IMG/VR virus record: IMGVR_UViG_3300032309_000931
Coordinates: 29,876 to 93,875 of that record
Reading direction: 5' to 3' (one strand)
Length of the DNA: 64,000 bases
From: a virus
This document shows positions 28,011-59,000 of the stretch, piece by piece; positions within the stretch are counted from its first letter, which is position 1; each line of letters begins with the position of its first letter. A program made the position numbers and the translations under genes. The notes beneath the pieces were generated by a model. It had not been told where the DNA came from. It saw nothing but the letters and a program-made list of their open reading frames with translations, and searched no databases.

Positions 28011-28172
28011 CTAGGCTAGTGGAATCCAAGACCCACACTCTAGGCACGTGTCCGTAGCAACGTGGAACCAAGATTCTTCGTCACACACTACGCAGTCAGC
28101 GATAGCGTATCCTTCAACGTGCTGTCCACTAGCGAGCATTTCGTCACATTCTTCTGAGAGTAGCATTTCCAT
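28011..28172 (-). CDS. 53-aa CxxC..CxxC zinc-binding micro-protein (inverted cassette)
   Basis: MEMLLSEEC...CVVC...CLEC; AAAGGACA RBS and TGTCCG-N10-TAGTAT promoter on minus strand. Confidence 0.7.
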   Translation of the reverse strand: MEMLLSEECDEMLASGQHVEGYAIADCVVCDEESWFHVATDTCLECGSWIPLA

Positions 28173-28422
28173 TTGTCTGTCCTTTGTTTGTGTTTCTTTG
28201 ATATCTAAATACTATGTCATAGCACGGACATATAACTACCAATACCGCACATATTTAGGTGAACAATAGGTTAACAAATTTTGCGCCCCCCACGCAACAT
28301 TCTTGCGTGTTTTTACGACTTACGCAATAAATCCCCAAATAGCCTGTTTTTAGCCCTATTCTGGTAGTTTTATGTCGGTGGTCGATGTTACACTAAATAT
28401 ATAAACAAACAGAGAAACCAAA

Positions 28423-28487
28423 GAGAGTGAGCCTCTCAGAGCAAATAAGACCCAAAGGGTATGAGCCTCTCAGAGCAAATAAATCTC
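28423..28487 (+). ncRNA. tandem RUGAGC-hairpin-CAAAUAAR structured element (2 units) in 5' leader
   Basis: GAGA[GTGAGC CTC TCA GAG CAAATAAG]ACCC AAA GGGT[ATGAGC CTC TCA GAG CAAATAAA]TCTC. Confidence 0.5.
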
Positions 28488-28513
28488 AAGGTTTCAGATA
28501 AGGATAGAAAATA

Positions 28514-28624
28514 ATGAATGAATTTCACGGAAATTGCCAAAAGTGTGGCACTTGGAATCGAATTGCGTTTGTAGGTTCGATGTCCCTTAGCCAATTGCTT
28601 TGCAAGGCTTGCCGTAACAAGTAA
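28514..28624 (+). CDS. 36-aa zinc-finger micro-protein
   Basis: MNEFHGNCQKC...LLCKACRNK; AAGGA RBS. Confidence 0.75.
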   Translation: MNEFHGNCQKCGTWNRIAFVGSMSLSQLLCKACRNK

Positions 28625-28816
28625 GCCCCATAGCTTGTGCATAAGTTATCCACAGGCGGCGCACCACCATATCTAGTAACATACTGACATTTACGTACTA
28701 CATATAGATTCCCCTGAATTATAACAAAATGGTAACATAGCGTAACAATAGGGCATATCGATTAGTTATATGTCGGTGGTCTGTGTTAGGCTGTAGACAT
28801 AAAGAAAGGAAATGAA

Positions 28817-28939
28817 ATGAACGAATTTCACGGTAACTGCCAGAACTGTAAGGTCTGGACAAAGGTAGCCTTCAATGGCTCAATGGGTCTGAGTGAGTTG
28901 CTCTGCTCGCTCTGCCGTATGACACAGGCTACCAAGTAG
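28817..28939 (+). CDS. 40-aa zinc-finger micro-protein (paralog of 28514..28624)
   Basis: MNEFHGNCQNC...LLCSLCRMTQATK; AGAAAGGA RBS. Confidence 0.75.
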   Translation: MNEFHGNCQNCKVWTKVAFNGSMGLSELLCSLCRMTQATK

Positions 28940-28991
28940 TTTCGTGTCGTACCTCTAGGCTATACTGATAACAACAAGTAAGGACAAACAA

Positions 28992-29171
28992 ATGGAAATC
29001 GAAAACGAAATCGACATCAACGAAGTTGAGGACATCAACATCAACACTCTCACGCCTAAGCAAATGGCACTACGCCTAAACGCTCTCGTTCGTTTGGCTC
29101 AGGGTGAAACATTCACTACCCACGATTTTGAGGAAGCCCTAACGCTCACTCGCAAACTGGCTAAGCGATAG
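28992..29171 (+). CDS. 59-aa hypothetical protein
   Basis: own promoter, AAGGACA RBS. Confidence 0.7.
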   Translation: MEIENEIDINEVEDININTLTPKQMALRLNALVRLAQGETFTTHDFEEALTLTRKLAKR

Positions 29172-29179
29172 GGGAACCA

Positions 29180-29269
29180 ATGCTAGTCTCAAACATCGCC
29201 ACAGTAATTTGTGTGCTACTAATCGGATACCTAATAATCTACATCGCTCAGGAGATAAGCAATGACTAA
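29180..29269 (+). CDS. 29-aa hydrophobic (single TM) peptide
   Basis: MLVSNIATVICVLLIGYLIIYIAQEISND. Confidence 0.5.
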   Translation: MLVSNIATVICVLLIGYLIIYIAQEISND

Positions 29270-29351
29270 ATGTAAAGAGTGTAAGCGTAACCTAACTGTA
29301 ATAATCGAAAACTATCCTGATTTGTGTTGGTCGTGTGTGATGGAACAGTAG
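29262..29351 (+). CDS. 29-aa CxxC..CxxC micro-protein
   Basis: MTKCKEC...LCWSCVMEQ; AGGAGA RBS. Confidence 0.6.
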   Translation: MTKCKECKRNLTVIIENYPDLCWSCVMEQ

Positions 29352-29520
29352 GCGGATCGACTTATCCACAGCCCCCGAAAAGTTATCCACAGGGGGGCGC
29401 AAACTTATCCACAGCCTGTTAGTAACTTAGTTACGAATTGTTACGAACTTTCCCTAAAATTCCCTAGTTTTATGTCGGTGGTCAATGATAAAATGTAAAC
29501 ATACAAGCAAAGGACAAAAA

Positions 29521-29637
29521 ATGAACTGGTATCAAGTACTCGTAGAGTATGATGAAATGATTGGCACAATCTATGTTGCGGCAGATGAATTGGAAGCATT
29601 CAAGGCAAAGTATAAAGTGCTAAGCGTAATCATCTAG
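29521..29637 (+). CDS. 38-aa hypothetical protein
   Basis: promoter + AAAGGACA RBS. Confidence 0.7.
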   Translation: MNWYQVLVEYDEMIGTIYVAADELEAFKAKYKVLSVII

Positions 29638-29693
29638 GGTTTCGTGTCGGTGGTCGCTGGTATACTAATAACATAAACAAGAAAAGGACAATA

Positions 29694-29834
29694 ATGACAA
29701 AGAGTCGATACACAACCGTACTGGTGGAAATGCCAGACAAGATTTTTTTCCAAGCAATCCACATCTATGATTGGGCTAAGGAAATCGAATACTTGAAATC
29801 TCAGGGTGCTACTTCTATCACTATAGCCAAGTAG
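29694..29834 (+). CDS. 46-aa hypothetical protein
   Basis: promoter + AAAGGACA RBS; stop abuts a DnaA box. Confidence 0.7.
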   Translation: MTKSRYTTVLVEMPDKIFFQAIHIYDWAKEIEYLKSQGATSITIAK

Positions 29835-29843
29835 TTATCCACA

Positions 29844-29893
29844 GGGGTATCGAATGAGCCTGTAGTTATCCACAGCAAATAAGTCGATACCCC
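29844..29893 (+). ncRNA. RUGAGC/CAAAUAAR structured element
   Basis: GGGGTATCGA[ATGAGC CTGT AGTTATCC ACAG CAAATAAG]TCGATACCCC. Confidence 0.5.
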
Positions 29894-30026
29894 CAAAGTT
29901 ATCCACAGGCTGCGCCCCACGCAAGTTTATTGCGTCTTTATGAAGATAGTTGCGTTTTCCCTGAATTGGGGGGTTTTATGTCGGTGGTCGGCTGTATACT
30001 GATAACATAGACAGAAAAGGACAACT

Positions 30027-30206
30027 ATGACAAATCAACTCCCAGAAAACAAGGCAACTGCCGAACAGTATGAAACTCTCAAATCGCTTATCACAAAGCG
30101 TTACCCTGACGCAGACCTGCTTCACATCTACGCTTCACTCTCAGGCGTACTTTCAGTAGGCGTATCTGAAGAGGCTATGGCACGACTTATCGAACTACAC
30201 CAGTAG
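30027..30206 (+). CDS. 59-aa hypothetical protein
   Basis: promoter + AAAGGACA RBS. Confidence 0.7.
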   Translation: MTNQLPENKATAEQYETLKSLITKRYPDADLLHIYASLSGVLSVGVSEEAMARLIELHQ

Positions 30207-30258
30207 TTTCGTGTCGGTGCTCACCAGTATAATTGTAATACAAGCAGAAAAGGAAAAA

Positions 30259-30492
30259 ATGGAACAACTAATCGGAACAAACGTAAAAACACACAACCAC
30301 GCTTATCTTGGTGAGGTTCGCAACGTGTCTAGACTGTTTGTAAAGCCTATCTATCGTCACCTGAGAGGCATTGAGGCTAACGAGCCTTATGTTGCCTACG
30401 CTGTCGAAATCGAAGGCTCGGACAGTCCTAAAGGCTGGACAACGCTTATCGCTCGTGATGAAGCAGACATCCTGAAGCGTTACGCAGTCTAA
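30259..30492 (+). CDS. 77-aa hypothetical protein
   Basis: start reassigned to MEQLIG after AAAAGGA RBS. Confidence 0.7.
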   Translation: MEQLIGTNVKTHNHAYLGEVRNVSRLFVKPIYRHLRGIEANEPYVAYAVEIEGSDSPKGWTTLIARDEADILKRYAV

Positions 30493-30499
30493 TCCGTAA

Positions 30500-30541
30500 G
30501 GGGAGAGAGTGAGCCTCGCAAGAGCAAATAAATCTCTCCCC
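30500..30541 (+). ncRNA. RUGAGC/CAAAUAAR structured element
   Basis: GGGGAGAGA[GTGAGC CTC GCAA GAG CAAATAAA]TCTCTCCCC, GNRA tetraloop. Confidence 0.5.
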
Positions 30542-30704
30542 AAACAGGATACATTCCAAAATGGGAATGTGTGTCAATCTCAAAAAAATGCGCCCCCCCC
30601 CACCCCTAGCCTTAATTACGAATTAAGAAAACAAATCCCAGATTCCCGAATTAGATGTCGGTGGTCAATGTTATACTGTATACATAACGAAAGGACATAA
30701 GCAA

Positions 30705-30971
30705 ATGGCTTACTCAAACACTCACGCAGATTTCTACCAGACGGCTATGGGGACTATGGTCACAGAGCCTCAGTCGGCTTGGGATACCTCTACTCACTGT
30801 GCAGACTGTGGCGTTCAGTACGCTTACTGTGGCTGCCCCAACGAGGACATTGACGAGCCTGTTGATGGCTTTGCTGTCTGTGCTGTCTGCGACTATACCG
30901 TTCGTGGACTATTCTATCTCAATGGGGATTCAACTGGTCGCTGTGCTGGATGCCATAACTCTATTCGATAG
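30705..30971 (+). CDS. 88-aa double zinc-finger-like protein
   Basis: CADC..CGC..CAVC..CAGC; promoter + RBS. Confidence 0.7.
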   Translation: MAYSNTHADFYQTAMGTMVTEPQSAWDTSTHCADCGVQYAYCGCPNEDIDEPVDGFAVCAVCDYTVRGLFYLNGDSTGRCAGCHNSIR

Positions 30972-31110
30972 GAGTTATCCACAGGCTGGGGCGCAGCTTT
31001 TGATCCTAGACATAATTACGTAAGCATTAAAAATACCCTGGAAATTTCCCTAGTTTTATGTCGGTGCTCAGATGTATAATTATATTATCAACCAAACAAA
31101 GGACAAAGTA

Positions 31111-31662
31111 ATGACTACTCTCACCGCTAACGAAATTCACACCGCAACTGCTACAGATTTGTACCGTGACCTGATTGTTCGTGCTACTCTTGGACAGGTC
31201 GAACAGGCTAGTGTCTGGTATCACGAAGCACAAGAAGTTGCCCAAGAGGTTGCTCGTAATCTGGACACAACGCTAGAGGTTGGTGCTAGTGTCGTATCTG
31301 CGTTTTCTCCTCGTGAGCGTTGGGCAAGCAACATCGAAAAGGCTGTGGCGTTCTCACTTGGACACACGCCTAAAGGATTGGGCAACAACCTCAAAATGGC
31401 ACAGTCCTCGCTGACTGCTGGATTCTATGCCCTCAAGGGTCTCAAGACTAATGCGTTTGCTCGTGCCATTGCTGGAGATACTGACGCTGTTGTGATTGAC
31501 ATTTGGATGATGAGAGCGGCAGGTATGGAAACTGATAGCCCAACTCAAGGACAGTATTTCGCACTCTCACTTGCTTGCCGTAATGTCGCTAAAGAATTTG
31601 GGCTTACTCCTCGCACCGCACAGGCTCTGATTTGGATTCTCGTGAGAGGCTCAGCAATCTAA
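31111..31662 (+). CDS. conserved phage protein, possibly HhH DNA-glycosylase-like
   Basis: WY..A..SP...W..N, G.KT.AF..I, V.ID.W, AQA..W pattern; start after AAAGGACA. Confidence 0.45.
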   Translation: MTTLTANEIHTATATDLYRDLIVRATLGQVEQASVWYHEAQEVAQEVARNLDTTLEVGASVVSAFSPRERWASNIEKAVAFSLGHTPKGLGNNLKMAQSSLTAGFYALKGLKTNAFARAIAGDTDAVVIDIWMMRAAGMETDSPTQGQYFALSLACRNVAKEFGLTPRTAQALIWILVRGSAI

Positions 31663-31778
31663 GGGCTACCCCGAAAGGGGTTGCGCCCCACGCAGCTTTC
31701 TTGCGTAATTACGAACAATTTTTGTTTTTCCCTAAATTTGGGTAGTTATGTGTCGGTGCTCTGATGTATACTAATACT

Positions 31779-31943
31779 ATGAAGAAAAAGAACCCAACTC
31801 ACAAAGGTATTGAGAACAAGCCCTACATTGAGGCTATGCGTGAATTGCGTAGGTCTAACGCAGCCACTACCCACGACAACCGCCCTAACCGTTTGCGTAC
31901 TCGCAAAGCAATCAAAACCCAAGCAATCAAGGAGAACGAATAA
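31779..31943 (+). CDS. 54-aa basic protein (leaderless)
   Basis: ATG 6 nt after TATACT; MRELRRSNAATTH..RP.R.RTR. Confidence 0.7.
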   Translation: MKKKNPTHKGIENKPYIEAMRELRRSNAATTHDNRPNRLRTRKAIKTQAIKENE

Positions 31944-32110
31944 TGGAATGTGAATTCTGCACTAATGAAAAACTGGCTACCGTTTCGGTTATGCACCTGC
32001 GTGACCGTATCGAACAAGCCGCCTGTGGCAAGTGTGCCAACGACCTATCTGATGAAAAGTGGGTAGTCACTCACGAATTCGACACATCTATCTGGGATTT
32101 TGCAGGGTAG
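31943..32110 (+). CDS. 55-aa CxxC..CxxC micro-protein
   Basis: MECEFC...ACGKC; TAATG coupling. Confidence 0.7.
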   Translation: MECEFCTNEKLATVSVMHLRDRIEQAACGKCANDLSDEKWVVTHEFDTSIWDFAG

Positions 32111-32165
32111 TTATGTGTCGGTGGTCTAGGTTATAATAGTAATACGAACAAAGAAAAGGACAGAA

Positions 32166-32339
32166 ATGAAAAAGTACAACTTCACTGGTTTCGCATTCGG
32201 TAGTAACGGAGAAATGGTTTTCCGTATTGAGGTTCTGAACCACACCGAAAACGGAACAAATGTTTCCACCCAAATCGATTTGGAACTCACACCAGAGGAA
32301 CGAACCGAACTCATCACCCAACTTATCTCAATCAAGTAG
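32166..32339 (+). CDS. 57-aa hypothetical protein
   Basis: promoter + AAAGGACA RBS. Confidence 0.7.
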   Translation: MKKYNFTGFAFGSNGEMVFRIEVLNHTENGTNVSTQIDLELTPEERTELITQLISIK

Positions 32340-32390
32340 TTTGGTGTCGGTGCTTCACGCTATAATAGAACTACGAACAAAGGACAATAA

Positions 32391-32570
32391 ATGAAAGACA
32401 CAATCAACCGTTCAGGTGAGGTAATCGAAAATCTCACAATCGCACAGGGTGACCGCCGTTATGCTTACGCATTTGCGTTTGGATTTGCGTGGTCTTTGCT
32501 CTCGGAAAAGAACCGTAAAGAGTTGCTGAAAATCTCAGAACGAAAAGCACAAGAAAAGGACAACGACTAA
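32391..32570 (+). CDS. 59-aa hypothetical protein
   Basis: promoter + AAAGGACA RBS. Confidence 0.7.
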   Translation: MKDTINRSGEVIENLTIAQGDRRYAYAFAFGFAWSLLSEKNRKELLKISERKAQEKDND

Positions 32571-32767
32571 TGACAAAGTATCCAGAAATCGAAGTACAAC
32601 TTACAGGACAAGACGGCAACGCATTCGCAATTATGGGTGCGGTATCTCGTGAACTCCGCAAGGCTGGGGTATCCAAAGAGGAAATCAACGAATACACTAC
32701 GCAATCTATGTCTGGCGACTATGACAACCTTTTGCGTACTGCTATGGCTTGGGTGAGTGTATCCTAA
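32570..32767 (+). CDS. 65-aa conserved phage protein
   Basis: LTGQDGNAFAIMG.V...LRKAG....MSGDYDNLL; coupled. Confidence 0.75.
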   Translation: MTKYPEIEVQLTGQDGNAFAIMGAVSRELRKAGVSKEEINEYTTQSMSGDYDNLLRTAMAWVSVS

Positions 32768-32946
32768 TGATGACACGCAAAGACTATGTAGCCGTTTCAG
32801 AATTGCTGAACACCTACGCTCTCAAAATAGATGAGCAAACATTCGACCTACTCATTCACGACTTTGCTGGACTGATGGCAAAGGACAATGAGCGTTTCAT
32901 CGCTGACCGTTTCATCTCCGCTTGCTGGAATGGCGAGAATGCTTGA
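32767..32946 (+). CDS. 59-aa conserved phage protein
   Basis: MTRKDY..., DN.RF..DRF..AC; TAATG coupling. Confidence 0.7.
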   Translation: MMTRKDYVAVSELLNTYALKIDEQTFDLLIHDFAGLMAKDNERFIADRFISACWNGENA

Positions 32947-33123
32947 GATTATTGTTATCACGCTGGGGGTATTGGCAGTACTCCTGGCGTGGTTCAATGA
33001 CTAAAATTTTGCGCCCCCCTGCCCTCACAAACCTATTACTAACCTTACGATCTTTTTCCCGAAATTCACAGAGTTTGATGTCGGTGGTACTTGGTATAAT
33101 AGAAACATAACGAAAGGACACTA

Positions 33124-33429
33124 ATGAACGACGGAACATACCTCAACCTTGACGGAAAGTTTATTCTCTCTCACGCCAAGTCTGGCTATTGGGTAGCCGT
33201 TCACAAGTACGACAGCCTTGACGACACTATTTCAGGGGATTACGTAGGCGTGTGGACAAATCCCGAAACTGGCGTTATGTACCTTGACCGTAGCGTTTGG
33301 GTGTCTGACTTGGACAACGCTATCGCTCTGGGTAAGTCACAAGGACAATTGGCTATCTGGGACTGTGCCAATGAAACAGAAATCTGGCTCAACGAATACT
33401 TTGCCGATGTATTCAAAGACGAAGTTTGA
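33124..33429 (+). CDS. 101-aa hypothetical protein
   Basis: promoter + RBS; YVGVW..YLD..Q.AIWD. Confidence 0.75.
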   Translation: MNDGTYLNLDGKFILSHAKSGYWVAVHKYDSLDDTISGDYVGVWTNPETGVMYLDRSVWVSDLDNAIALGKSQGQLAIWDCANETEIWLNEYFADVFKDEV

Positions 33430-33457
33430 TGTCGGTACTCCCCTGTATAATTAGACT

Positions 33458-33568
33458 ATGAACGAACAATTTATCGAATGCCCCCAATGTGGCGACACAG
33501 TAATCGAATCCGATATGCGTGAGGTAGGCGTATGTTGGGAATGTGACTATCTACCAGAGGAGAAATAA
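33458..33568 (+). CDS. 36-aa CxxC..CxxC micro-protein (leaderless)
   Basis: ATG 6 nt after TATAAT; CPQC..CWEC. Confidence 0.7.
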   Translation: MNEQFIECPQCGDTVIESDMREVGVCWECDYLPEEK

Positions 33569-33847
33569 ATGGGAAGAATGTTTGTAGAGAGTATCAAGGA
33601 ACTTGGCGATATCGAATTAGAGGATATGGTGAGTATGCACTTCAGTAGCAATTGCTACCCCCCAATTCCACAGTTTATGGTGCAGTCAGCGGTAGCCGCT
33701 ATCAACGCTTGCAACTATGGTGACTACAATGAGGTAATCCAATTGCCACACGGAGTCACTTACAGGGGTAGTGAGTTTGTTGATGCAGCCACCTATGTCG
33801 AAGCACACCGCCTTGAGGGATTCGTAGAATGGGAGTATGAGGACTAA
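33569..33847 (+). CDS. 92-aa hypothetical protein
   Basis: GAGGAG RBS; H..SNCYPPIP. Confidence 0.7.
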   Translation: MGRMFVESIKELGDIELEDMVSMHFSSNCYPPIPQFMVQSAVAAINACNYGDYNEVIQLPHGVTYRGSEFVDAATYVEAHRLEGFVEWEYED

Positions 33848-33936
33848 TGGACTGGGAAAACGTAATTGACTGGAAAGTTGTTGACAGGTTGACAGACGAA
33901 CAGGTATCCGCTATACTGGATATGTTCGACAAGTAA
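33847..33936 (+). CDS. 29-aa hypothetical peptide containing an internal TTGACA-N17-TATACT promoter
   Basis: TAATG coupling; TTGACA 33889, TATACT 33912. Confidence 0.5.
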   Translation: MDWENVIDWKVVDRLTDEQVSAILDMFDK

Positions 33937-33943
33937 GGATAAA

Positions 33944-34117
33944 ATGACTGACTATATACTCAAATATCAGGTATGGAATGGACACGAGGACGGTAAGTTG
34001 GCAACGTTCCGTCACTTGGAACAGGCACAACTGTTTGTCGATAGCGTGAGAGCATTCTATCCCAAGGTATTTGTTTATGATGTTTTGACTGGACAACGAT
34101 TGGTGAGTGCAGACTAG
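33944..34117 (+). CDS. 57-aa hypothetical protein
   Basis: AAGGA RBS. Confidence 0.6.
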   Translation: MTDYILKYQVWNGHEDGKLATFRHLEQAQLFVDSVRAFYPKVFVYDVLTGQRLVSAD

Positions 34118-34238
34118 GAGCTGCGCCCCCCTCGTTACCAAACATCTATTAAGAATTACGAATAATTATCCAGATTCCCAGAGTTATATGTCGGTGGTCA
34201 GGGGTATACTTATAAGACAGACAAGAAAAGGACACACA

Positions 34239-34640
34239 ATGGGACAATACCACAGCATTTACAACCTTGACAAGCAAGAGGTTATTCACCCACACGACAT
34301 TGGTCTTGGGGCAAAGCAGCGTGAACACACAGGTCACACTGCCTCACTGTCAGATATGATGTATATCCTGACAACCTGCTCACCTATGCGTGGCGGAGGG
34401 GATTTCGTAGCAGAGGTTATGAAGGACTTCATTGGGCGTTGGGCAGGTGACCGTTGCGTAGTTATTGGTGACTATGCTGAACCTAGTGACTTGCCAGATG
34501 TGGATTTCTCTACCCTCAAAGATTTCACAGATATTTCTGGAGAAGCACGAGCCTTTATCTTTGAGGTATATGGTATCCATTTCCGAACGGTTGACTATGG
34601 TTTGGAAAGAGTTTACCCTGAGAATTCAGACAGAGTTTGA
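34239..34640 (+). CDS. 133-aa conserved phage protein
   Basis: start MGQYH after AAAGGACA; GRWAGDR.V.IGDY. Confidence 0.75.
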   Translation: MGQYHSIYNLDKQEVIHPHDIGLGAKQREHTGHTASLSDMMYILTTCSPMRGGGDFVAEVMKDFIGRWAGDRCVVIGDYAEPSDLPDVDFSTLKDFTDISGEARAFIFEVYGIHFRTVDYGLERVYPENSDRV

Positions 34641-34689
34641 TGTCCGTGGTAGACGGTATAATTGTAGTAACAACAACGAGAGGACAACT

Positions 34690-34950
34690 ATGTTAGACAA
34701 AGCATTTGCTCTAAAGAAAGTAACCGAAGACATAACTACAGACCCAATGGTTATGTACGCTGGCTTTCTTGTAATGCAAGCAGAAACCGAAGACGAGCGT
34801 AACTCTGCTCTGAACAACTTTGGACAAACAATCACAGGACTTATGGCATTTGCTATGTCGGAACTCCTGCTGTCGGAAGAGGACTTCACCGCCCTCACCG
34901 AAACAATTGGGGAACTTATCGAAATTGGTGAAATTGGAGAAGAGGACTAA
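34690..34950 (+). CDS. 86-aa acidic hypothetical protein
   Basis: promoter + GAGGACA RBS. Confidence 0.7.
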   Translation: MLDKAFALKKVTEDITTDPMVMYAGFLVMQAETEDERNSALNNFGQTITGLMAFAMSELLLSEEDFTALTETIGELIEIGEIGEED

Positions 34951-35093
34951 TGTCTGAAATTATAATTAGGCTTGACACCGCTCACGCAGAGACCCTCATT
35001 GGGTTTCTTGGAGAGTTCTTGGATGGAGAGTTCGCTGAGGAAGAGTGCTTCATCAACTTGTACAACAAACTAGTAAGGGAGATGAACTACTAA
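34950..35093 (+). CDS. 47-aa hypothetical protein
   Basis: TAATG coupled both sides. Confidence 0.6.
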   Translation: MSEIIIRLDTAHAETLIGFLGEFLDGEFAEEECFINLYNKLVREMNY

Positions 35094-35491
35094 TGGAAAA
35101 CCAGCACCCAGTACTTTCACAACTCAATCAAGAAGTCTCAGACCTGAAGCAGCAGGTGGAGTTCCTTCGAAGTGAACGTGACCGTCTTTTGGCTAACTAC
35201 TCACAGGACGTAGAGAACACTCGTGCAATTCTTATCGAAGCAATTGTCGACGGAACAGACGTTAGGACGTTGGCAAACTCTATCGCTGATGTGTTTGCTA
35301 TCTCGCTCCTCAAGTCAGTCACAGTATCAATGGTGATGAATGTTGAAGCGACAATGGTGGTTCCTGCTGACTACGACATTAGCAACCTTGAAATTGGGGA
35401 TGTTCAGGTTCATTGCTACAACTCAGATGTTGAAGACTTTAGCGTTGAATCATTTGACATCATTGACATCGAAGAGGCTAAGTATACATAA
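35093..35491 (+). CDS. 132-aa coiled-coil hypothetical protein
   Basis: start MENQHP, AAGGGAG RBS. Confidence 0.7.
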   Translation: MENQHPVLSQLNQEVSDLKQQVEFLRSERDRLLANYSQDVENTRAILIEAIVDGTDVRTLANSIADVFAISLLKSVTVSMVMNVEATMVVPADYDISNLEIGDVQVHCYNSDVEDFSVESFDIIDIEEAKYT

Positions 35492-35502
35492 TAGCTAGGT
35501 TC

Positions 35503-35576
35503 CCACTGTGGTATTCTTGTCCTTTCCTGCAGTGGTGATAGGTCCTGGATATGACCTTTATAAACTGTCCTTTCTT
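35503..35576 (+). ncRNA. anti-SD hairpin plus H-type pseudoknot
   Basis: CCACTGTGG-TATTCTTGTCCTTT-CCTGCAGTGG then GGTC CTGGATAT GACC..TAAAC TGTCC TTTCTT. Confidence 0.5.
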
Positions 35577-35757
35577 AGTACCCTGCCGAGATCGGTGGAC
35601 CTGCGCCCCCCTGCCCCAGCAAACAAGTTACGAACTGTTACAAAAATCCCCTGATTTGATTTGTTTTATGTCGGTGGTCATTGGTATACTTGTATTACAG
35701 GCAGGGAGATGAAGTCGGAAGTCCCCACAAAAAAAATAAAAAAGTTTGAGAATAGAC

Positions 35758-35786
35758 TTGACAAACTCTCTCCCAGCCTGTATAAT
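35758..35786 (+). promoter_or_regulatory. consensus sigmaA promoter
   Basis: TTGACA-N17-TATAAT. Confidence 0.8.
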
Positions 35787-35842
35787 AGTAATAACGAAGC
35801 AAACAAAACAGTTGGCTCACTACAAGGAAGCAGGTAACACAA

Positions 35843-35989
35843 ATGGGAGAAATCCAAATCGGTTCACAGTTCACCACGCAGAAGTCAGGCGTTGTCGGAA
35901 CGGTTCAGGAAATCGTCAAGAACGCAAACGGCACAAGCCGTGTTCGCCTCACCGTCAATGGTGCAGACCGCTGGACTACCGTAAAGTAG
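35843..35989 (+). CDS. 48-aa beta-rich (SH3-like) micro-protein
   Basis: MGEIQIGSQFTTQKSGVVGTVQEIV...RWTTVK behind consensus promoter. Confidence 0.7.
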   Translation: MGEIQIGSQFTTQKSGVVGTVQEIVKNANGTSRVRLTVNGADRWTTVK

Positions 35990-36120
35990 TCTAGTTTGGG
36001 GAGGTAGGAGGAACGGCTCTGAATACCTAGTAGACTACCTCCCCCACTTACAACTCAATAGTTTCGTGTCAGACCCCAATGATACAATGGATACATAAGC
36101 CAATAGAAAGGACTAAACCA

Positions 36121-36576
36121 ATGGCTCGTTCACTCTCCGTGAAAATCCCAACCGCAACTCTTATCGCTGATGTTGAGGCAACTATTGCCAAGATTGAGGC
36201 AGAGATGGCTACATACCCTGCCGATATGGAAGCATACCGCAAGGCAAGCAAGGCACACCAAGACTTGGTTCTCAAAGCAGTTATTGAGGCAATCAAGAAC
36301 CCTGACAACATTGGTGACACCTATGACCAGAACGCTCTTGTTCGTGTCAGTAGCAACCGCTATGGTCGTAACGGCGTTAGCATTGAGGTAAACACCGATT
36401 TGCTCAACCTGCCTAGCGAACCTGAATGTCCAACTAACCCTAACGAGAAAACTCACTATGGGCGTGAATACACCACCAAGTTGGACTTGCTCAAGAAAAA
36501 CCTCAAGGTTCTCAAAATGACTAACCAAGAGGAAGTCAATGCCTCCACTTACAATACTGTAATGGAACTTCTCTAA
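36121..36576 (+). CDS. 151-aa hypothetical protein
   Basis: start MARSLSVK after AGAAAGGA RBS and motif promoter. Confidence 0.75.
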   Translation: MARSLSVKIPTATLIADVEATIAKIEAEMATYPADMEAYRKASKAHQDLVLKAVIEAIKNPDNIGDTYDQNALVRVSSNRYGRNGVSIEVNTDLLNLPSEPECPTNPNEKTHYGREYTTKLDLLKKNLKVLKMTNQEEVNASTYNTVMELL

Positions 36577-36584
36577 CGAGAAAT

Positions 36585-36680
36585 GTGCTGGGTATCACTA
36601 GAAACTGCCTCCTGAATTGGGGTAGCGACTAGACAGGTAAAATAATTTCGCTCTAACCTGAGTATGTGGTTAAACTGCTC
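36585..36680 (+). ncRNA. two CU..WAAAC-UG H-type pseudoknots flanking a third pseudoknot-like element
   Basis: 36585-36610 and 36656-36680 with compensatory pairing. Confidence 0.5.
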
Positions 36681-36706
36681 ACCCTATAACTACACAGAGA
36701 AACATT

Positions 36707-36778
36707 GGCTTCATAGTGAAAAGGTTATCACACTACCCTGTCGAGGTAGAAGTTAGGGTTCGAGTCCCTATGAGGTCG
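36707..36778 (+). tRNA. tRNA-Asp(GTC)
   Basis: GGCTTCA/TGAGGTC acceptor, CTACC-CTGTCGA-GGTAG anticodon arm, TTCGAGT T-loop; no encoded CCA. Confidence 0.85.
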
Positions 36779-36886
36779 CTTCCCTTGAAATAGAGGGTGA
36801 GTTGCTAGTTGCAGATGATACTAGATAGGTTAGAGATACTAGGGTGAGATGATGTCCTCTATTCCGAAGTAAACTTTCACACACTA

Positions 36887-36938
36887 ATCCCCTGCGAAGC
36901 GTCTGGATAGATTGCTGGTAGCAGGGGATTTTTGTTTT
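36887..36938 (+). terminator. terminator
   Basis: ATCCCCTGC...GCAGGGGAT followed by TTTTGTTTT. Confidence 0.65.
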
Positions 36939-37080
36939 GGGGAATCGAGCTGCGCCCCGACTTTGTTAGAACATACTTATTACGGATTGGTTACGAAAGC
37001 CCCAAAAATGTTCCCGAAACTTGTTTTATGTCGGTGGTCAGGAGTATAATAGAACTAACAACGAAAAAGAAAGGTATGAA

Positions 37081-38103
37081 ATGGCTCACGAATTAGAAAT
37101 CGGTGCTAACGGCGAGGTTGCTTTTGCTTCCTTGCGTGAACCTGCTTGGCACAAGTTGGGTACTGTCTTTGAAGACGAGGTATCAACTTCAGAAATGCTC
37201 AAGTTGGCTCACTTGGACAACTGGAATGTTCGCCTTGAGGAATTGACTTTCCCTGAAGGCTATGTCTCAGACAAGACAAACTACTTTGTTTGTCGCACTA
37301 ACCCATTCGACAAGACACAGAATGATGTGCTTGGCGTTGTGGGTGAACGCTATCACACTATGCAGAACGAGGACTTGTTCACCTTTGGTGACAACCTGCT
37401 TGACGGTGGTGGCAAGTGGGAAACCGCTGGCTCAATCAAGGGTGGGCGTGTAGTCTTTGGCTCTCTCGCTCTTGACAACGAAATGGTGCTTGACCCCAAT
37501 GGTCGTGCTGACAAGGTAGACAGTTACCTCCTTATCAACACCAGTCACGATGGCTCTATCTCCATTATGGCTTCGATTACCCCTGTGCGAGTTGTGTGTG
37601 CAAACACTCTCAACCTTGCTCTTGGTGGTGGCGTAGGCAAGTGGCGTAATGTCAAGCAGTCGTTCAAAATTCGTCACACTCAGACGGCAGAGGGCAAGGT
37701 TCAAGTTGCTCGTGAAGCACTTGGTTTGGCTCAGACTTACCTTGACGAGTTCTCCGTTATGGCTAACGCTATGATTGAGACTGAGGTTACTAAGTCAGAG
37801 TTTGACCAGATTGTTGCTCTTGCTTACCCTGCCCCTGAGAAAGACGCTAAGGGTTCGTTCAAGAAGCACAACGACAAGATTGAACTCATCAACGACATCT
37901 ATGTTGGTGACTACAACAACACGATTGCTGGTACTGCTTGGGGTACGCTCAACGCTCTCACAGAACGCCTTGACTGGTATCGCTCTGCTCGTGGTGGCAA
38001 CAACGAAAGTATCCTTGCTGGTGCTAGTGGACTTGACCCTGCTCTCAATGCAGAAAAGAACCGCTTGGCTCGTATTGTCGCAAGCGTAATGCTGGGAGTG
38101 TAA
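37081..38103 (+). CDS. DUF932 / TIGR03299 phage-plasmid family protein
   Basis: MAHELE..PAWHKLG, LGVVGERY..QN, ETAGS..GG..VF, SHDGS, TPVRVVCANTL, RHT, GTAWG..NALTE. Confidence 0.85.
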   Translation: MAHELEIGANGEVAFASLREPAWHKLGTVFEDEVSTSEMLKLAHLDNWNVRLEELTFPEGYVSDKTNYFVCRTNPFDKTQNDVLGVVGERYHTMQNEDLFTFGDNLLDGGGKWETAGSIKGGRVVFGSLALDNEMVLDPNGRADKVDSYLLINTSHDGSISIMASITPVRVVCANTLNLALGGGVGKWRNVKQSFKIRHTQTAEGKVQVAREALGLAQTYLDEFSVMANAMIETEVTKSEFDQIVALAYPAPEKDAKGSFKKHNDKIELINDIYVGDYNNTIAGTAWGTLNALTERLDWYRSARGGNNESILAGASGLDPALNAEKNRLARIVASVMLGV

Positions 38104-38109
38104 TCCCTA

Positions 38110-38136
38110 ACTGCTAGGCAACAGTCTAAACTGCCT
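38110..38136 (+). ncRNA. H-type pseudoknot (4th copy)
   Basis: ACTG CTAGGCAA CAGT CTAAAC TGCCT. Confidence 0.5.
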
Positions 38137-38316
38137 CCCCTTTGGGGGATCGACTGGGGATAAGTTATGCACAGGAGCTGCGCCCCAAAAATTCTAACAT
38201 AGATAACTAATCATAAAAAAACAATTACGAACCTCGTAAAAAATCTCCCGAATTCCTCTTGTTATATGTCGGTGGTACGCAGTATAATTGAGGTATCCCC
38301 TAATGGAAGGTATGAA

Positions 38317-38529
38317 ATGAAGAAGTTTGATATTCGTGCTACCTATGAGTATGTAGCAGAAGGTATCATTGCTGAAGATGAAGATGCGGCTTATAACATC
38401 TTCCTTGCAAATCTCAACGACTACTACTCTGGCACAGAAGACCTAGAGATTGAAGAAGACGGAGATGTTTGCGAAGACTGTGAGCAAGACATTGACGAGT
38501 GTGATTGTGAGGAAGAAGATGCTGACTGA
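38317..38529 (+). CDS. 70-aa acidic protein with C-terminal Cys cluster
   Basis: promoter + GGAAGG RBS; CEDC..CDC. Confidence 0.7.
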   Translation: MKKFDIRATYEYVAEGIIAEDEDAAYNIFLANLNDYYSGTEDLEIEEDGDVCEDCEQDIDECDCEEEDAD

Positions 38530-38585
38530 ACACTGTGTACCCAATGACAATGACCTGTGTATGTTCTGTGGAGAGGATATGAGTA

Positions 38586-38828
38586 ATGTCTACTACTGAT
38601 GATTGGAAGCCTGATATGTTTATTACATACCGCTTCGTTTCCGACTTTGCTATTGTGACGTTCAACGTTCCAGGTATGGCTGAGTGGGACGACGAGCAAT
38701 GGGATTCTGTAGCACACACAGACCTTGCCTCATATGTGACTGAGCCTGAAGCATACTGGGAAGACGAGCAATGGCAAGTTGAAGACGGTAGGGAGCAGTA
38801 CGAGACATATGGAAGGGTATCCCTATGA
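38586..38828 (+). CDS. hypothetical protein
   Basis: GAGGA RBS. Confidence 0.65.
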   Translation: MSTTDDWKPDMFITYRFVSDFAIVTFNVPGMAEWDDEQWDSVAHTDLASYVTEPEAYWEDEQWQVEDGREQYETYGRVSL

Positions 38829-38995
38829 GTGATAACCTAGAGACTTATTATGAAGTCAACGAACGTGAAGTAGCCAAACAAGAGATTACGAGCAAGATTG
38901 ACGAATTGCTGGAATCGAGTTCTATGTCGTACCTCGATGCTAAAATAGGACTAAACCTAATAAAGACATTCATCAAATTTATGGACGAGGAGTAA
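38825..38995 (+). CDS. 56-aa hypothetical protein
   Basis: ATGA overlap; contains internal motif promoter at 38925. Confidence 0.6.
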   Translation: MSDNLETYYEVNEREVAKQEITSKIDELLESSSMSYLDAKIGLNLIKTFIKFMDEE

Positions 38996-38996
38996 G

Positions 38997-39158
38997 ATGA
39001 AGACCTATCAAGTAGAATACAATGCTACCTATTGGGTAGAAGCAGATAGCGAAGAGCAAGCAATCGAACTGGCTATCATTCAGCACGAAGATATGCCTGA
39101 CGGTGATTGGGAAGCAATGATTGACCCCTATGACAGCAATAACTTTGGAGATAAGTAA
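38997..39158 (+). CDS. 53-aa hypothetical protein
   Basis: GAGGAG RBS; MKTYQVE..VEADSEEQA. Confidence 0.65.
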   Translation: MKTYQVEYNATYWVEADSEEQAIELAIIQHEDMPDGDWEAMIDPYDSNNFGDK

Positions 39159-39394
39159 TGATTACTTGGGACGAATGGGAAGATACCTATAAGCCTACTA
39201 CCCCTTTGGCTATCGAAGACCTATCAGAGATTGACAAGGACTTAGACTATCACTACATCTGGACTATGGTGGACGGTGACGGACGGTATGCTGACCTGTA
39301 CTCTGGTATTTATATCGTCAACCGTCTTGGTTACTTTGTTACTGAAGTACCGTGGACAGAAGAAGTATTCGTGACTGACCAAAAGGATATCTAA
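39158..39394 (+). CDS. hypothetical protein
   Basis: IWT.VDGD..G...VNRLGYFVTEVPW. Confidence 0.7.
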   Translation: MITWDEWEDTYKPTTPLAIEDLSEIDKDLDYHYIWTMVDGDGRYADLYSGIYIVNRLGYFVTEVPWTEEVFVTDQKDI

Positions 39395-39716
39395 TGAAGT
39401 GTGAACTAGAAAGTTGCAGCAAAGTCGGAAGGTATGAAGATGTAGAAGAGTTCTACATTCTTTGTGAAGAACACTATGAGCAAGTAGTGAAAGGAACCAT
39501 ATATGGATAATCAGATCGTTTCTTATATCAATGACCAGCTACCAGAAATTCTTGAGAGCCGTGACTATGCACTTGCTAATGATGATTTCGAATCTGAATA
39601 TTTGGATGGTATTGTAATGGCATATCAACATATCATTGATAAGTTCTCTTACGAACGCCCTTGACAAAATCCCGAAATCTTGGTACAATAGTATAACCCC
39701 TAACAAAAGGAAAACA

Positions 39717-40235
39717 ATGCACGTTCTACAATACATCGCAATAAAAGCAGATAGCCCTGAAGAAGCAATTGATAGTGTTCGTTCAACTCTAGAATCAATG
39801 CTAGGCAATGACGGTTCCACTAGTTCCTGGTACGACTGGTTCATCACTGGCGGTGGACGATTCAATCCCAATGCTGAACCATACAAAGACGGAGAAACTA
39901 ATATGGTTGTTTCTTCTAAGGATAGTAAAGCATTCGAAAAGATTCTGGATGAATCAATTGAGGCACGTCTCTCGGAATTCCGTCGGTATGTCGAAGAGTG
40001 GAAGCGTAGCAATATCAATCTTGATTCTTACTTTGAAGAGTATGACGGTGCTATGGACTACTCTATGAAACTGTACTCTCTTGGCAAGATTATTGATATG
40101 GCTCAAGGTGAGTGGGACTTCAACTCTTACTTCTTTGACCTTCACAACTGGTCAACCAATCCTGTTCATATGACTAAAGACCGTATCAACAATGACGGTG
40201 TTTGGTTCCTCGTCCCTGTGGACTTCCACTTCTAA
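39717..40235 (+). CDS. 172-aa conserved phage protein
   Basis: start MHVLQYI; TTGACA-N17-TACAAT at 39661-39689; WYDWF..GGGRF, VPVDFHF. Confidence 0.75.
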   Translation: MHVLQYIAIKADSPEEAIDSVRSTLESMLGNDGSTSSWYDWFITGGGRFNPNAEPYKDGETNMVVSSKDSKAFEKILDESIEARLSEFRRYVEEWKRSNINLDSYFEEYDGAMDYSMKLYSLGKIIDMAQGEWDFNSYFFDLHNWSTNPVHMTKDRINNDGVWFLVPVDFHF

Positions 40236-40243
40236 GGAGAATA

Positions 40244-40387
40244 ATGAAAGAATATACTATTGAAGTTACCCACACTCCCACTGGTCAGTACTTCACCCTT
40301 ACCGCCTCATATGACGAGGACTATGACTACGAGTCAATCGTAGAAGATATCGCTAAAGACCTTAGCATTGATGTAGAGGAGAACTAA
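40244..40387 (+). CDS. 47-aa hypothetical protein
   Basis: AAGGAG RBS. Confidence 0.6.
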   Translation: MKEYTIEVTHTPTGQYFTLTASYDEDYDYESIVEDIAKDLSIDVEEN

Positions 40388-40749
40388 TGAGAGGCACACG
40401 TATACTGGACCTGAACATCTTCTACCGTGAAAGCTGGTCTAAGGAGACTGGTAGTACCTGGAGCGAAACGTTTACCATCGAACCATACATCCGTGAGGAA
40501 GACGACGAGGGTATTCGAAACATTGAGACTAACTATCTTATTGAATGTGATGAATACGAGACTGCATATCTTGCTAAGCAATTCCCTGAAGAGGAGTACG
40601 GCAGTGACTTCTGGATATTTGCAGACGAAGTTGACATTCCTACACGTCGTATTGCGAAGGTACTCAAAGAGATCGATTTAAGCCAAGATTATTTTCCACG
40701 GTCAGCAGTACACGCATTAACAATCACAGAGCCTGTCACAATGAAGTGA
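40387..40749 (+). CDS. hypothetical protein
   Basis: GAGGAG RBS, coupled. Confidence 0.65.
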   Translation: MRGTRILDLNIFYRESWSKETGSTWSETFTIEPYIREEDDEGIRNIETNYLIECDEYETAYLAKQFPEEEYGSDFWIFADEVDIPTRRIAKVLKEIDLSQDYFPRSAVHALTITEPVTMK

Positions 40750-40863
40750 CGGACACGTAGACGTTGAATGGGGGTTCCGTCTACAAATTGGTGGGGACGC
40801 AAGTTTTTATTTCCTTTCAGACTTGCGTTCCTGCCTCACTTTTGGTATAATTGACTGAGGAGT

Positions 40864-41067
40864 ATGATGAGAAAAGTAGTAACCAACGAGGAGAAAGTGG
40901 CAAAGCGATTATCAGATTCGATTTCAGACTTGCGTTTGGACTTGGAAATGATTTCACTTTACCTTTCACAGATTTCACCAAATGTAACAATCAACCGTAT
41001 TCTGCTTATGGCAGAGTTTCTAAAAGAAGAAAAAGAGGGAACACAAAATGACTACGACTACCTTTGA
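40864..41067 (+). CDS. hypothetical protein
   Basis: TTGCGT..TGGTATAAT promoter, GAGGAG RBS. Confidence 0.65.
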   Translation: MMRKVVTNEEKVAKRLSDSISDLRLDLEMISLYLSQISPNVTINRILLMAEFLKEEKEGTQNDYDYL

Positions 41068-41323
41068 GAACAAGTGCGTTATCCTGTCTGACCTTTGGCT
41101 GAACTATCGCTATGACAAAGAGTTTGCCGACTTTATCGAATACAATGATATGGGCTTGCCACTTGCCTACACCTTGTCTGAGGGAATTGTCAATGGTACA
41201 GATATGTCTACCAAGTTTATTGACGAGACTTTTGACCTTTTGCTTAGTGGTCTAGAGATTGAGGACACAGGCTTTGAGAGTCTAGACGAGTTGTTGTCTA
41301 CTGGTGGTAGTCTACAAGAATAA
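41048..41323 (+). CDS. hypothetical protein
   Basis: GAGGGA RBS; F..YND.GLPLAY. Confidence 0.7.
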   Translation: MTTTTFENKCVILSDLWLNYRYDKEFADFIEYNDMGLPLAYTLSEGIVNGTDMSTKFIDETFDLLLSGLEIEDTGFESLDELLSTGGSLQE

Positions 41324-42100
41324 TTATCCACAGGGGGGTAGCTCTATCCACAGAGTTATCCCCAGGTGGGCGCACTTTGTTATAACATACTAACAAACAT
41401 ACCATTTACGAACAGGCATTAAGAACTCCCAAATATATTTCCCAAATTTTACAGACATTACGAGGGACTTCAAAAAATCGCTGAAAGTTTGGAGGGTATC
41501 AGATGATGTCCTATTCTCCCTATATATAATACATATACCTATAGACATTACGATCTTATGTTTGATACCCCCGAAATGTGGATATGTCTAATAGGATTGT
41601 TTGGTATAGATATTTGGGGGCAGCTAAGTATAAGCATTTCCCCCTATATAACTATAAACAAATACATTACGAACCCTTGATTATTTTTCCCAGATTTGTG
41701 GATATTTCTGATATAAAATAGGATGTTTTGACATATTTATACACAATATATAGGGATTTTTGGGCATAATTATACTATATATAGGGGTTGACAAATGGGA
41801 TATTTTGTGGTAGATAGGAGGTTTGGATGTGGGGACACTATATGTTGTGGTTGGGATTACGATCCGCTACGATATGTGGGCTCTATATCTCAAACAACTT
41901 TCCAAACATCCTCTTTCAGTCAGATAATATCCATATCAGTAAGATGATTGTGGATAACTCTGTGGATAAATGTGTCCAAATCAGCCGCAGGATACGTTCT
42001 AAGGAGCTATATCCTCTGATGTCAAACAGGTGTGTATGCTCAAAACCATCTAGTCATATAGGTGATTATAGATACTATAGGTTATAGGTTATATAGGGAA
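41324..42100. other. AT-rich non-coding ori/terminus-like region
   Basis: inward-facing DnaA boxes at both ends, five (A)TTACGA repeats, CCCTATATA/TATATAGGG inverted repeats, at + to - strand switch. Confidence 0.55.
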
Positions 42101-58926: not shown

Positions 58927-59000
58927 AGCCATCTGTGAGATTCGAACTCACGACTTCGATATTACAAGTATCGCACTCTGACCAACTGAGTTAAGACGGC
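58927..59000 (-). tRNA. tRNA-Thr(TGT)
   Basis: CGATA-CTTGTAA-TATCG canonical. Confidence 0.9.

Follow-up and report, generated by a model that had tools for sequence, protein, structure and literature searches.

The early modules of phages SPO1, T5, and T7 consist of many small genes behind repeated strong early promoters near a genome end, and these promoters are of the ordinary host sigma-A or sigma-70 kind, with no activator-dependent hybrid and no exclusive junction word. Here, we describe a likewise dense array of small genes behind repeated promoters near a genome end, located on the plus strand at 28.5-41.3 kb of a 64,000-nt window (bases 29876-93875 of the single 93,875-bp IMG/VR virus record IMGVR_UViG_3300032309_000931, called G000 in the comparisons). 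Twelve modules are separated by 13 boundaries (B1 to B13) with a fixed order of elements, and all positions given below are those of the window.

Both the promoter class and the cassette concept found in this array have precedents. The PafBC-dependent (RecA-NDp) promoters of Mycobacterium and other Actinobacteria follow the consensus tGTCgg(N10)tA(N3)T, in which a -26 element replaces the -35 element; by "sigma adaptation," PafBC inserts between region 4 of SigA and the DNA, and a GTC read-out has been reported for PafB (PMC8635444). PafBC is activated by single-stranded DNA (ssDNA) (PMC11804915). Promoter-early stem-loops (PeSLs) are composite promoter/terminator cassettes that bring about the shuffling of modules in the hyperplastic regions of T4-type phages (PMC2839356, PMC4122927), and recombination between these cassettes leads to mini-circles.

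Comparing the array with PafBC promoters, the two share an identical consensus without a -35 element, a GTC that is invariant family-wide, and an actinobacterial setting. Unlike the host promoters, those described here lie on what is most likely an uncultured, lytic phage with a genome of ~94 kb, number ~20 per genome, drive small orphan genes rather than repair genes, and are accompanied by extra conserved bases and by TCCC, TTACG, GC word, and DnaA box elements that have not been described for the host promoters. The resemblance to PeSLs lies in a repeated regulatory cassette that flanks small nonessential open reading frames (ORFs) in a hypervariable early region, and in the end points of insertion, deletion, replacement, and reordering between close relatives, which fall at the cassettes. 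However, the phage group and the host phylum differ, the promoter is PafBC-type instead of strong sigma-70-like, only some half of the boundaries have a stem-loop, and the joints fall on a genome-exclusive GC word, ~70 nt upstream of the promoter, rather than within the promoter repeat.

Overall, we consider it probable that the block is a PeSL-like array of 12 autonomous PafBC-type promoter cassettes that is wired to the ssDNA alarm of the host and shuffled at its boundaries. An entire phage gene block on PafBC-type promoters is new, as the literature searched holds no description of phage promoters of this class, and so is a lineage-specific, genome-exclusive GC word at each module head, placed on a mosaic joint. 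Should the promoters indeed depend on PafBC, we know of no earlier case in which a lytic phage places an entire block of genes under an ssDNA-sensing WYL-domain activator of its host.

A promoter core with the PafBC-class consensus

Across the whole 93,875-bp genome, TGTCGG-N10-TANNNT occurs 17 times on the plus strand, always between 28373 and 38267, and not once on the minus strand. Three weaker variants are present at 34641 (TGTCCG), 28945 (TGTCGT), and 36067 (TGTCAG), and the 19-nt promoter word TAGTTTTATGTCGGTGGTC has 13 copies with three or fewer mismatches as compared with 0.01 expected, counts that bear out the repeat noticed in the original prediction. The -10 element is often preceded by TGn (an extended -10) and followed seven bases later by a conserved A, while the -35 position reads AGTTTT or similar and holds no -35 element. 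Promoters of the sigma-70 type are not enriched (20 versus 24.9 expected), with a few good ones at 33889, 35758, and 39661. As read from its bases, the core is an exact match to the PafBC class, with the invariant GTC, the N10 spacer, and no -35 element. The promoter had been taken for noncanonical and undescribed; it instead fits a published consensus (PMC8635444). Two further readings of the promoter region were rejected: a LexA (Cheo) box at TTACGAAC, of which the second half-site is absent, and a second sigma-A promoter formed by TTACGA and a downstream TAnnnT, which lacks a consistent distance to any -10-like hexamer.

The core is conserved throughout the family, which we sampled with 74 related loci from IMG/VR (1.16 Mb; 75 loci counting this one). 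In these loci, ATGTCNG-N10-TANNNT was found 544 times on the gene strand versus 17 times on the opposite strand, and spacers of 6-9 and 11-14 instead of 10 gave 2-47 sites each. All repeated core variants retain TGTC-N-G, while the later bases vary with the lineage (GTGG, CGTGG, TGACC, AGACC), a pattern that fits the GTC read-out reported for PafB. Additional conserved bases around the box (AA ahead of TGTC; TAGTTTTA here) exceed the host consensus.

Within the modules, further genes carry the short promoter alone, as had been proposed, and at six sites (29645, 30212, 32116, 32345, 33430, and 34641, all on the plus strand) this promoter overlaps the previous stop, either a TGA or the TAG of TAGTTT. 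At 31779 and 33458, the start codon begins with the conserved +1 A, so that the starts are leaderless. Leaderless mRNAs are a common actinobacterial trait. The portal protein is ~47% identical to Streptomyces phage portals of Stanwilliamsviridae and belongs to the structural genes (portal, protease, major head protein) on the minus strand at 1-26 kb. In addition, a WhiB-family gene that exceeds the Pfam cut-off lies amid minus-strand genes at 55520-55840 (minus strand); because WhiB is used as a marker of actinobacterial phages (PMC10914622), and in line with the leaderless starts and the Streptomyces-like portal, the host is presumably an actinobacterium. A GroES-based lookup in 185,579 species genomes returned matches of ~50% to Chloroflexi and Firmicutes alone and was uninformative on the host.

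These features could be combined into one mechanism. Without insertion of PafBC, a WYL-domain activator of the host, the hybrid promoter would be unreadable for host SigA RNA polymerase. Since ssDNA switches PafBC on, the phage genes would most likely be plugged into the DNA-damage or foreign-DNA alarm of the host. The bare cores placed over a preceding stop would restart transcription within modules, and two of them would give leaderless mRNAs. The GC word is the first element of a unit that moves with its downstream genes upon reordering, gain, or loss. If the dependence on PafBC is true, the host alarm becomes an "on" switch of the phage, and sigma adaptation becomes relevant to infection in a family of abundant uncultured lake-type actinophages. 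The element could also be of use in actinobacteria as a promoter cassette that is compact and damage-inducible.

Boundary anatomy, GC word, and module exchange

The boundaries follow the order of stop codon, DnaA boxes and/or hairpin, GCGC, TTACG, TCCC, core, -10, Shine–Dalgarno sequence, and ATG, so that the conserved order of the original prediction holds. At 7 of 12 boundaries the GCGC is 66-68 nt ahead of TGTC, with an overall range of 66-112, TTACG lies 32-60 nt ahead at 10 boundaries (-80 at B2, none at B4), and TCCC lies 12-22 nt ahead at 10 of 12. A module head is a composite control element of ~100-130 nt, with TCCCnAAAT ~15-20 nt and one or two (G/A)TTACG half-sites ~35-45 nt ahead of TGTC. 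The same layout was recovered from 696 promoters of the family, in which TCCC peaks at -30 to -1, TTACG at -50 to -30, GC runs at -90 to -50, and DnaA boxes at -110 to -50, the latter in both orientations in relatives. TTACG and the GC run co-occur in these promoters (odds ratio 6, p 1e-20), suggesting that "full" module heads make up about a quarter of the family promoters and bare cores the remainder.

The DnaA box TTATCCACA has 11 perfect copies versus 0.95 expected, nine of them on the plus strand within the array, and the repeated 9-mers match the DnaA box consensus TTATNCACA and are thus predicted sites. With one mismatch or fewer, boxes are found at 6 of 13 boundaries (B2, B3, B4, B6, B12, and B13), including two triplets. 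Stable hairpins are present at B1, B4, B5, B7, B11, B12, and B13 and absent from B8 and B9. Classical terminators, a hairpin followed by a T-run, are not enriched (9 versus 10.1 expected). In the explanation that we favor, the DnaA boxes and the RNA hairpins belong to the 3' end of the preceding module. A doubled (G/A)TTACG with a 10- to 11-nt period occurs at B3, B10, and B11 and at the orthologous boundaries of five relatives (L002-L006). This layout looks like an OmpR-family operator or a site of MtrA, of which the consensus is kTrACC-N5-GTkACn (PMC5650626), and it is offered as a lead, as most boundaries have a single clear TTACG half-site. Binding of DnaA and of an MtrA-like protein at the boundaries may be proposed from these motifs.

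Some RNA-like elements also lie at or near the boundaries. A motif of GAGCC, a small hairpin, and GCAAATAA is present in four copies enclosed by variable outer stems (28414-28490, 29845-29890, and 30500-30545), in the 5' leader as well as in 3' regions; one copy has a DnaA box in its inner loop, and the motif is also found in relatives. At 38107-38140 and ~36585-36615, directly past the stop codons of the DUF932 and 151-aa genes, a short stem with an 8-nt loop is followed by AAAC and a loop-complementary stretch, which could form an H-type pseudoknot. An Rfam search of 27-43 kb returned tRNA-Asp alone.

GCGC occurs 13 times in the genome, whereas an order-2 Markov model predicts ~74 copies and base composition ~159, and each of the 13 boundaries holds one copy, with none elsewhere. 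The word reads GCGCCCC at nine boundaries and is reversed at four. Whole-genome comparison revealed that relatives reserve other words for the same position, even close ones in which the DUF932 protein is 90-93% identical. While this genome has all 13 GCGC at boundaries and no CYCGRG, G001 (91.7 kb) has no GCGC and 14 copies of CCCGAG/CTCGGG, all in the early block (orientation 10 and 4), and G002 has 12 GCGC and no CYCGRG. Every GCGCCC of G002, G003, G005, and G006 is inside the early block. In G007 (L044), a complete genome with terminal repeats, the word is GCCCGACC, with 16 copies (13 forward, 3 reverse) all at 3.6-14.4 kb next to the genome end; the whole early array of this phage lies in the first ~15 kb, adjoins the genome end, and is transcribed toward that end. 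At orthologous boundaries, GCGCCCC is replaced by CCCGAGCC between conserved flanks, and other lineages have further words. The GCGC(CCC) element predicted earlier is hence universal among the 13 boundaries, but it is reversed at four of them, and GCGC itself is not required, as close relatives use CCCGAG.

Being present in both orientations and not consistently in a hairpin, the GC word looks like a DNA-level site, with a reader specificity that would depend on the lineage. Two RNA-level roles were rejected or downgraded: as part of a conserved terminator hairpin, because of inconsistent folds and the lack of any hairpin at B8 and B9, and as a Rho-utilization C-tract, which is unlikely since 4 of 13 copies are reversed and thus G-rich in RNA. 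When the whole genomes of G000, G001, and G002 were compared for a gene that tracks the word type (GCGC versus CCCGAG), nothing emerged beyond ThyX, GroES, a pyrimidine-dimer glycosylase, an M23 peptidase, and unknowns, and the presence or absence of ORF families over the 75 loci has no strong association with it. No integrase, C5 methyltransferase, or match to the tyrosine recombinase family PF00589 was found in the record. Other 4-base palindromes are purged from this genome (CCGG 0, GGCC 0, CATG 1 versus 300 expected, CGCG 1), a clear signature of restriction avoidance. G001 tolerates CATG (93 copies) yet has no GCGC, and restriction-avoidance profiles thus differ between near-identical phages.

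We compared the gene order with that of six close relatives. The modules at 31111-31662 and 31779-33004 (modules 6 and 7) stand in the opposite order in five of the six (L002-L006), and some genes that head a module of their own in one phage are internal to a module elsewhere. With conserved flanks on both sides, reordering or insertion of blocks was observed at 5 of 11 full boundaries versus 2 of 30 other junctions. The homology of the upstream gene ends at its stop, that of the downstream unit starts within ~10 nt of the GC word, and the homology ends lie within ~10 nt of this word at B4, B6, B7, B8, and B9. These joints imply that the GC word, TTACG, TCCC, promoter, and genes travel together as a unit. 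The hypervariable part of the block is its left half. Taken together, the comparisons support the boundaries as mosaic joints of a hyperplastic region that serve as exchange point and expression unit, and an active role of the GC word in recombination may be suggested. The proposal of plug-in cassettes with exchange at the boundary therefore gained the evidence of the reorderings and homology ends, but no recombinase or catalyzed exchange was found and promoterless junctions turn over too; the cassette idea itself is not novel, given the PeSLs of T4-type phages (PMC2839356, PMC4122927). The lineage words (GCGC, CCCGAG, and GCCCGACC) offer a testable handle on the shuffling of phage "ORFans" and extend the PeSL idea past T4-type phages.

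Explanations of the array

Several points weigh against a PafBC-driven array shuffled at its boundaries. We infer the dependence on PafBC from the match of the core sequence. As CheckV estimates the record to be 87% complete, a phage activator may be encoded in its unseen part. The upstream TCCC, TTACG, and GC word have not been reported for host PafBC promoters, indicating that the boundary holds more than a copied host promoter. In the first 50 kb of Streptomyces phage Evy, the nearest portal relative, a similar-looking block of small genes is present but a PafBC-type array is not, so the array is not a general actinophage trait. Megablast of the whole block against GenBank phages gave zero matches. 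With regard to exchange, a test of all junctions found 15 of 17 broken with a promoter versus 13 of 20 without, a nonsignificant difference (p 0.14), single genes are gained and lost at promoterless junctions too, and once all 74 loci, distant relatives included, serve as subjects, homology ends are enriched only about twofold at GCGC. The joints may fall at the GC word as the first base past the upstream stop, and selection for intact units could yield an identical picture without a special mechanism.

In a rival explanation, the boundaries are ordinary promoter and 3'-end DNA without an exchange function, the joints reflecting the survival of intact units and the GC word being a clamp or terminator part set by host restriction tolerance. 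The purge of CCGG, GGCC, CATG, and CGCG, with purged sites that differ among relatives, implies that restriction pressure shapes words, and GCGC and CYCGRG are both restriction-type palindromes; the turnover of genes at promoterless junctions and the lack of a recombinase in the record agree with this explanation as well. However, a generic clamp needs no identical word at all 13-16 boundaries in either orientation, nor does it require the word to be wholly absent from the remaining ~80 kb, as seen in four genomes with three words, and neither the hairpin-free B8 and B9, where the word stands outside any hairpin, nor the unenriched terminator-like hairpins would be expected. We regard it as possible but somewhat doubtful. 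An unlikely alternative concerns the activator, in that a phage-supplied factor (virion-delivered, very early, or a modified polymerase) would recognize the PafBC-like box and host PafBC would be uninvolved. The lineage-specific bases after TGTC-N-G (GTGG, TGACC, AGACC) could track such factors, the bases conserved around the box go beyond the host consensus, and the record is estimated to be only 87% complete. Against this stand the match to the host consensus, which spans the invariant bases and the exact N10 spacer, and a record in which no WYL domain, sigma factor or sigma-70 region 2, or recognizable activator was found; moreover, the first-expressed genes cannot need a product of the same block unless it is packaged in the virion.

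Other explanations assign the boundary a role beyond transcription. It could act as a decoy or sensor for host cell-cycle proteins that titrates DnaA or MtrA and so halts replication of the host, or as a membrane hold of incoming DNA, which has been proposed for the T5 injection-stop region, with the promoter being secondary. The excess of perfect TTATCCACA and its two triplets, the family-wide recurrence of boxes at -110 to -50, and the GTTACG repeats that resemble the MtrA consensus (PMC5650626) would all suit this role. T5-like phages have 8 conserved DnaA boxes in the first-injected region (bioRxiv 10.1101/866236), and the array shares with that first-step-transfer or injection-stop region the clustering of consensus boxes within a large lytic phage's early region and, in the complete relative G007, the position beside the genome end. 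Unlike in T5, the boxes here are dispersed between operons and not gathered in one untranslated region, and two-step injection is not known for this phage family. The boxes also vary in number among relatives (five in total in G002) and in orientation, are present at only 6 of 13 boundaries, and accompany mostly single TTACG half-sites, whereas the fixed spacing of TCCC, TTACG, and GC word looks like promoter architecture; a decoy role is accordingly hard to favor. More improbable still, the GC word could be a lineage-specific nick or cut site in the style of T5, tf, and phiKMV-like phages, with breaks that create recombination hot spots and perhaps, beside the promoters, the ssDNA by which PafBC is activated. 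Known nick words (T5, R/GCGCRGG as the major consensus; tf/LUZ24-like, TACTRTGMC; phiKMV-like) occur in ~9-17 copies, about a dozen, at conserved positions with a variable word, for which co-evolution with a nickase has been proposed (PMC3517423). Likewise, the word of this family has 13-16 exclusive copies, is lineage-specific at conserved positions, and marks the joints, and the GCGC of this genome is also part of the T5 word. However, known nick sites are confined to one strand, while 9 copies are forward and 4 reverse here, and the words here are confined to the early block, tied to promoters, and known from sequence. Moreover, no nickase candidate was found, the sole HNH gene is private to this genome, and neither among the three whole genomes nor over the 75 loci does any gene follow the word type. 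There is only a slim chance that the GC word is the site of a nicking or cutting activity, phage-borne or from an exploited host restriction-type enzyme, whose break would yield both PafBC-activating ssDNA close to the promoters and a recombination hot spot; if true, the early region would be a self-triggering, self-shuffling cassette array, in which the cell cycle of the host could additionally be sensed through the DnaA boxes and MtrA-like repeats. Least credible, and highly improbable in our judgment, is an integron-like system with a dedicated site-specific recombinase at the GC word. It would account for one short conserved word per cassette at the joint, small orphan genes, and an order that varies between relatives, but there is no tyrosine recombinase (PF00589) in the record, no attC-like imperfect inverted repeats were seen in the array, every cassette has its own promoter, and the word changes between close relatives.

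Modules of the array and nearby genes

A gene call aware of Shine–Dalgarno sequences and leaderless starts gave ~42 plus-strand genes at 28514-41323, in agreement with the ~40 ORFs, 12 modules, and 13 boundaries of the original prediction. Protein-level relatives in the family were detected for 33 of the 42 ORFs, including very small ones (29, 48, and 53 aa). The remaining nine micro-ORFs have no detectable relative in the family and all lie in the left, hypervariable part, so conservation of the micro-ORFs was confirmed for the majority but not for these. Only DUF932 (37081-38103) and DUF7178 (31111-31662) exceed the Pfam cut-off in the block, and the DUF932 gene is the most conserved one, being present in 75 of 75 loci. 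The block probably comprises small accessory or host-takeover genes, which would be expressed early.

To the left, the array is preceded by the inverted cassette that had been predicted (28011-28230, minus strand), in which TGTCCG (28230-28225), an N10 spacer, and the -10 TAGTAT (28214-28209) are followed by a Shine–Dalgarno sequence and a 53-aa ORF (28172-28011). All following features are on the plus strand. B1 (28241-28513) contains GCGCCCCCC at 28283, a hairpin with T-run (28291-28309), two TTACG, the core TGTCGG at 28373, and a long leader with two copies of the GAGCC...GCAAATAA RNA motif. Module 1 (28514-28624) encodes a 36-aa CxxC...CxxC peptide, which is paralogous to the 40-aa peptide at 28817 (23 of 34 residues identical), as the original prediction had it for adjacent cassettes. 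In B2 (28625-28816), a DnaA box (28646) and a GCGC of the reversed type (28659) precede TTACG and the core (28771), and module 2 (28817-29351) has four genes (40, 59, 29, and 29 aa) and an internal TGTCGT-N10-TATACT (28945-28966). B3 (29352-29520) holds three DnaA boxes (29362, 29383, and 29405), GGGGGGCGC at 29397, a GTTACG-N4-GTTACG direct repeat, and the core at 29473; the two genes of module 3 (29521-29834; 38 and 46 aa) are separated by a short promoter over the stop codon (29645-29666). B4 (29835-30026) likewise has three boxes (29835, 29866, and 29899), followed by GCGCCCC (29912), a hairpin ACGCAA/TTGCGT, and the core (29979), and module 4 (30027-30492) has two genes (59 and 77 aa) and a short promoter (30212-30233).

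B5 (30493-30704), with two RNA hairpins, GCGC and then a C-run (30590), TTACGAA, and the core (30656), heads module 5 (30705-30971), which encodes an 88-aa Cys-rich protein. B6 (30972-31110) consists of a DnaA box (30975), GGGGCGC (30991), TTACGTAA, and the core (31059), and is followed by the 183-aa DUF7178 protein of module 6 (31111-31662), located on the other side of module 7 in L002-L006. In B7 (31663-31778), a CCCC-GAAA-GGGG hairpin, GCGCCCC (31683), a second hairpin, TTACGAA, and the core (31751) lead to a -10 only 6 nt ahead of the ATG and thus to the leaderless start at 31779. Module 7 (31779-33004) contains six genes (54-65 aa and 38 aa) and short promoters at 32116-32137 and 32345-32366. 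The hairpin-free B8 (33005-33123) has GCGCCCCCC at 33011, 6 nt past the stop, then TTACGAT and the core (33079); module 8 (33124-34117) has five genes, a short promoter (33430-33451) with the leaderless start at 33458, and a canonical TTGACA-17-TATACT (33889-33917). B9 (34118-34238), with GCGCCCCCC (34123), TTACGAA, and the core (34189), precedes the four genes of module 9 (34239-35491; 133, 86, 47, and 132 aa), which include the short promoter TGTCCG (34641-34662).

B10 (35492-35708) carries GCGCCCCCC (35603), GTTACG-N4-GTTACA, and the core (35669). The first part of module 10 (35709-35989) comprises a possible 42-aa ORF (35709), a perfect SigA-type TTGACA-17-TATAAT (35758-35786), and a 48-aa gene (35843-35989), and the rest, up to 36779, comprises the variant TGTCAG (36067-36088), the 151-aa gene (36121-36576), and tRNA-Asp(GTC) (36707-36779). 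B11 (36780-37080) has a terminator-like hairpin with T-run, GCGCCCC (36952), ATTACG-N5-GTTACG, and the core (37029), and is followed by the 340-aa DUF932 protein of module 11 (37081-38103). B12 (38104-38316) contains a conserved hairpin, the DnaA-like box TTATGCACA (38165), GCGCCCC (38180), TTACGAAcctCGTAA, and the core (38267). Module 12 (38317-41323) is the largest, with 13 genes, no internal PafBC-type promoter, a SigA-type promoter with TG (39661-39689), and an extended -10 near 40850. The array ends at B13 (41324-41470), where a DnaA box (41324) and two one-mismatch boxes lie inside a strong hairpin; GCGC (41370), TTACGAA, and TCCCAAAT, which supplies the TCCC element, follow with no TGTC core, matching the earlier claim that the last boundary is without a promoter. 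A pair of perfect DnaA boxes 12 nt apart (41949-41969, minus strand), just downstream of converging minus-strand genes, faces the box cluster at 41324-41364, and the convergence zone of 41.3-42.0 kb is flanked by inward-pointing boxes.

The minus strand beyond this zone encodes a T4 endonuclease V-type pyrimidine-dimer glycosylase (43496-43975), absent from G001, as well as ThyX and GroES, within 47138-47839 and 47820-48113, respectively. The presence of an ultraviolet-repair enzyme beside DNA damage-type promoters may be more than coincidence. While tRNA-Asp(GTC) lies inside the array, between the 151-aa gene and B11, the seven other tRNAs belong to the minus strand (46.3-46.5 and 58.7-59.5 kb). 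Amid the latter cluster, a 130-aa HNH endonuclease is encoded at 58991-59383 (minus strand); this sole HNH gene is absent from both close relatives and is therefore probably a homing-type insertion.

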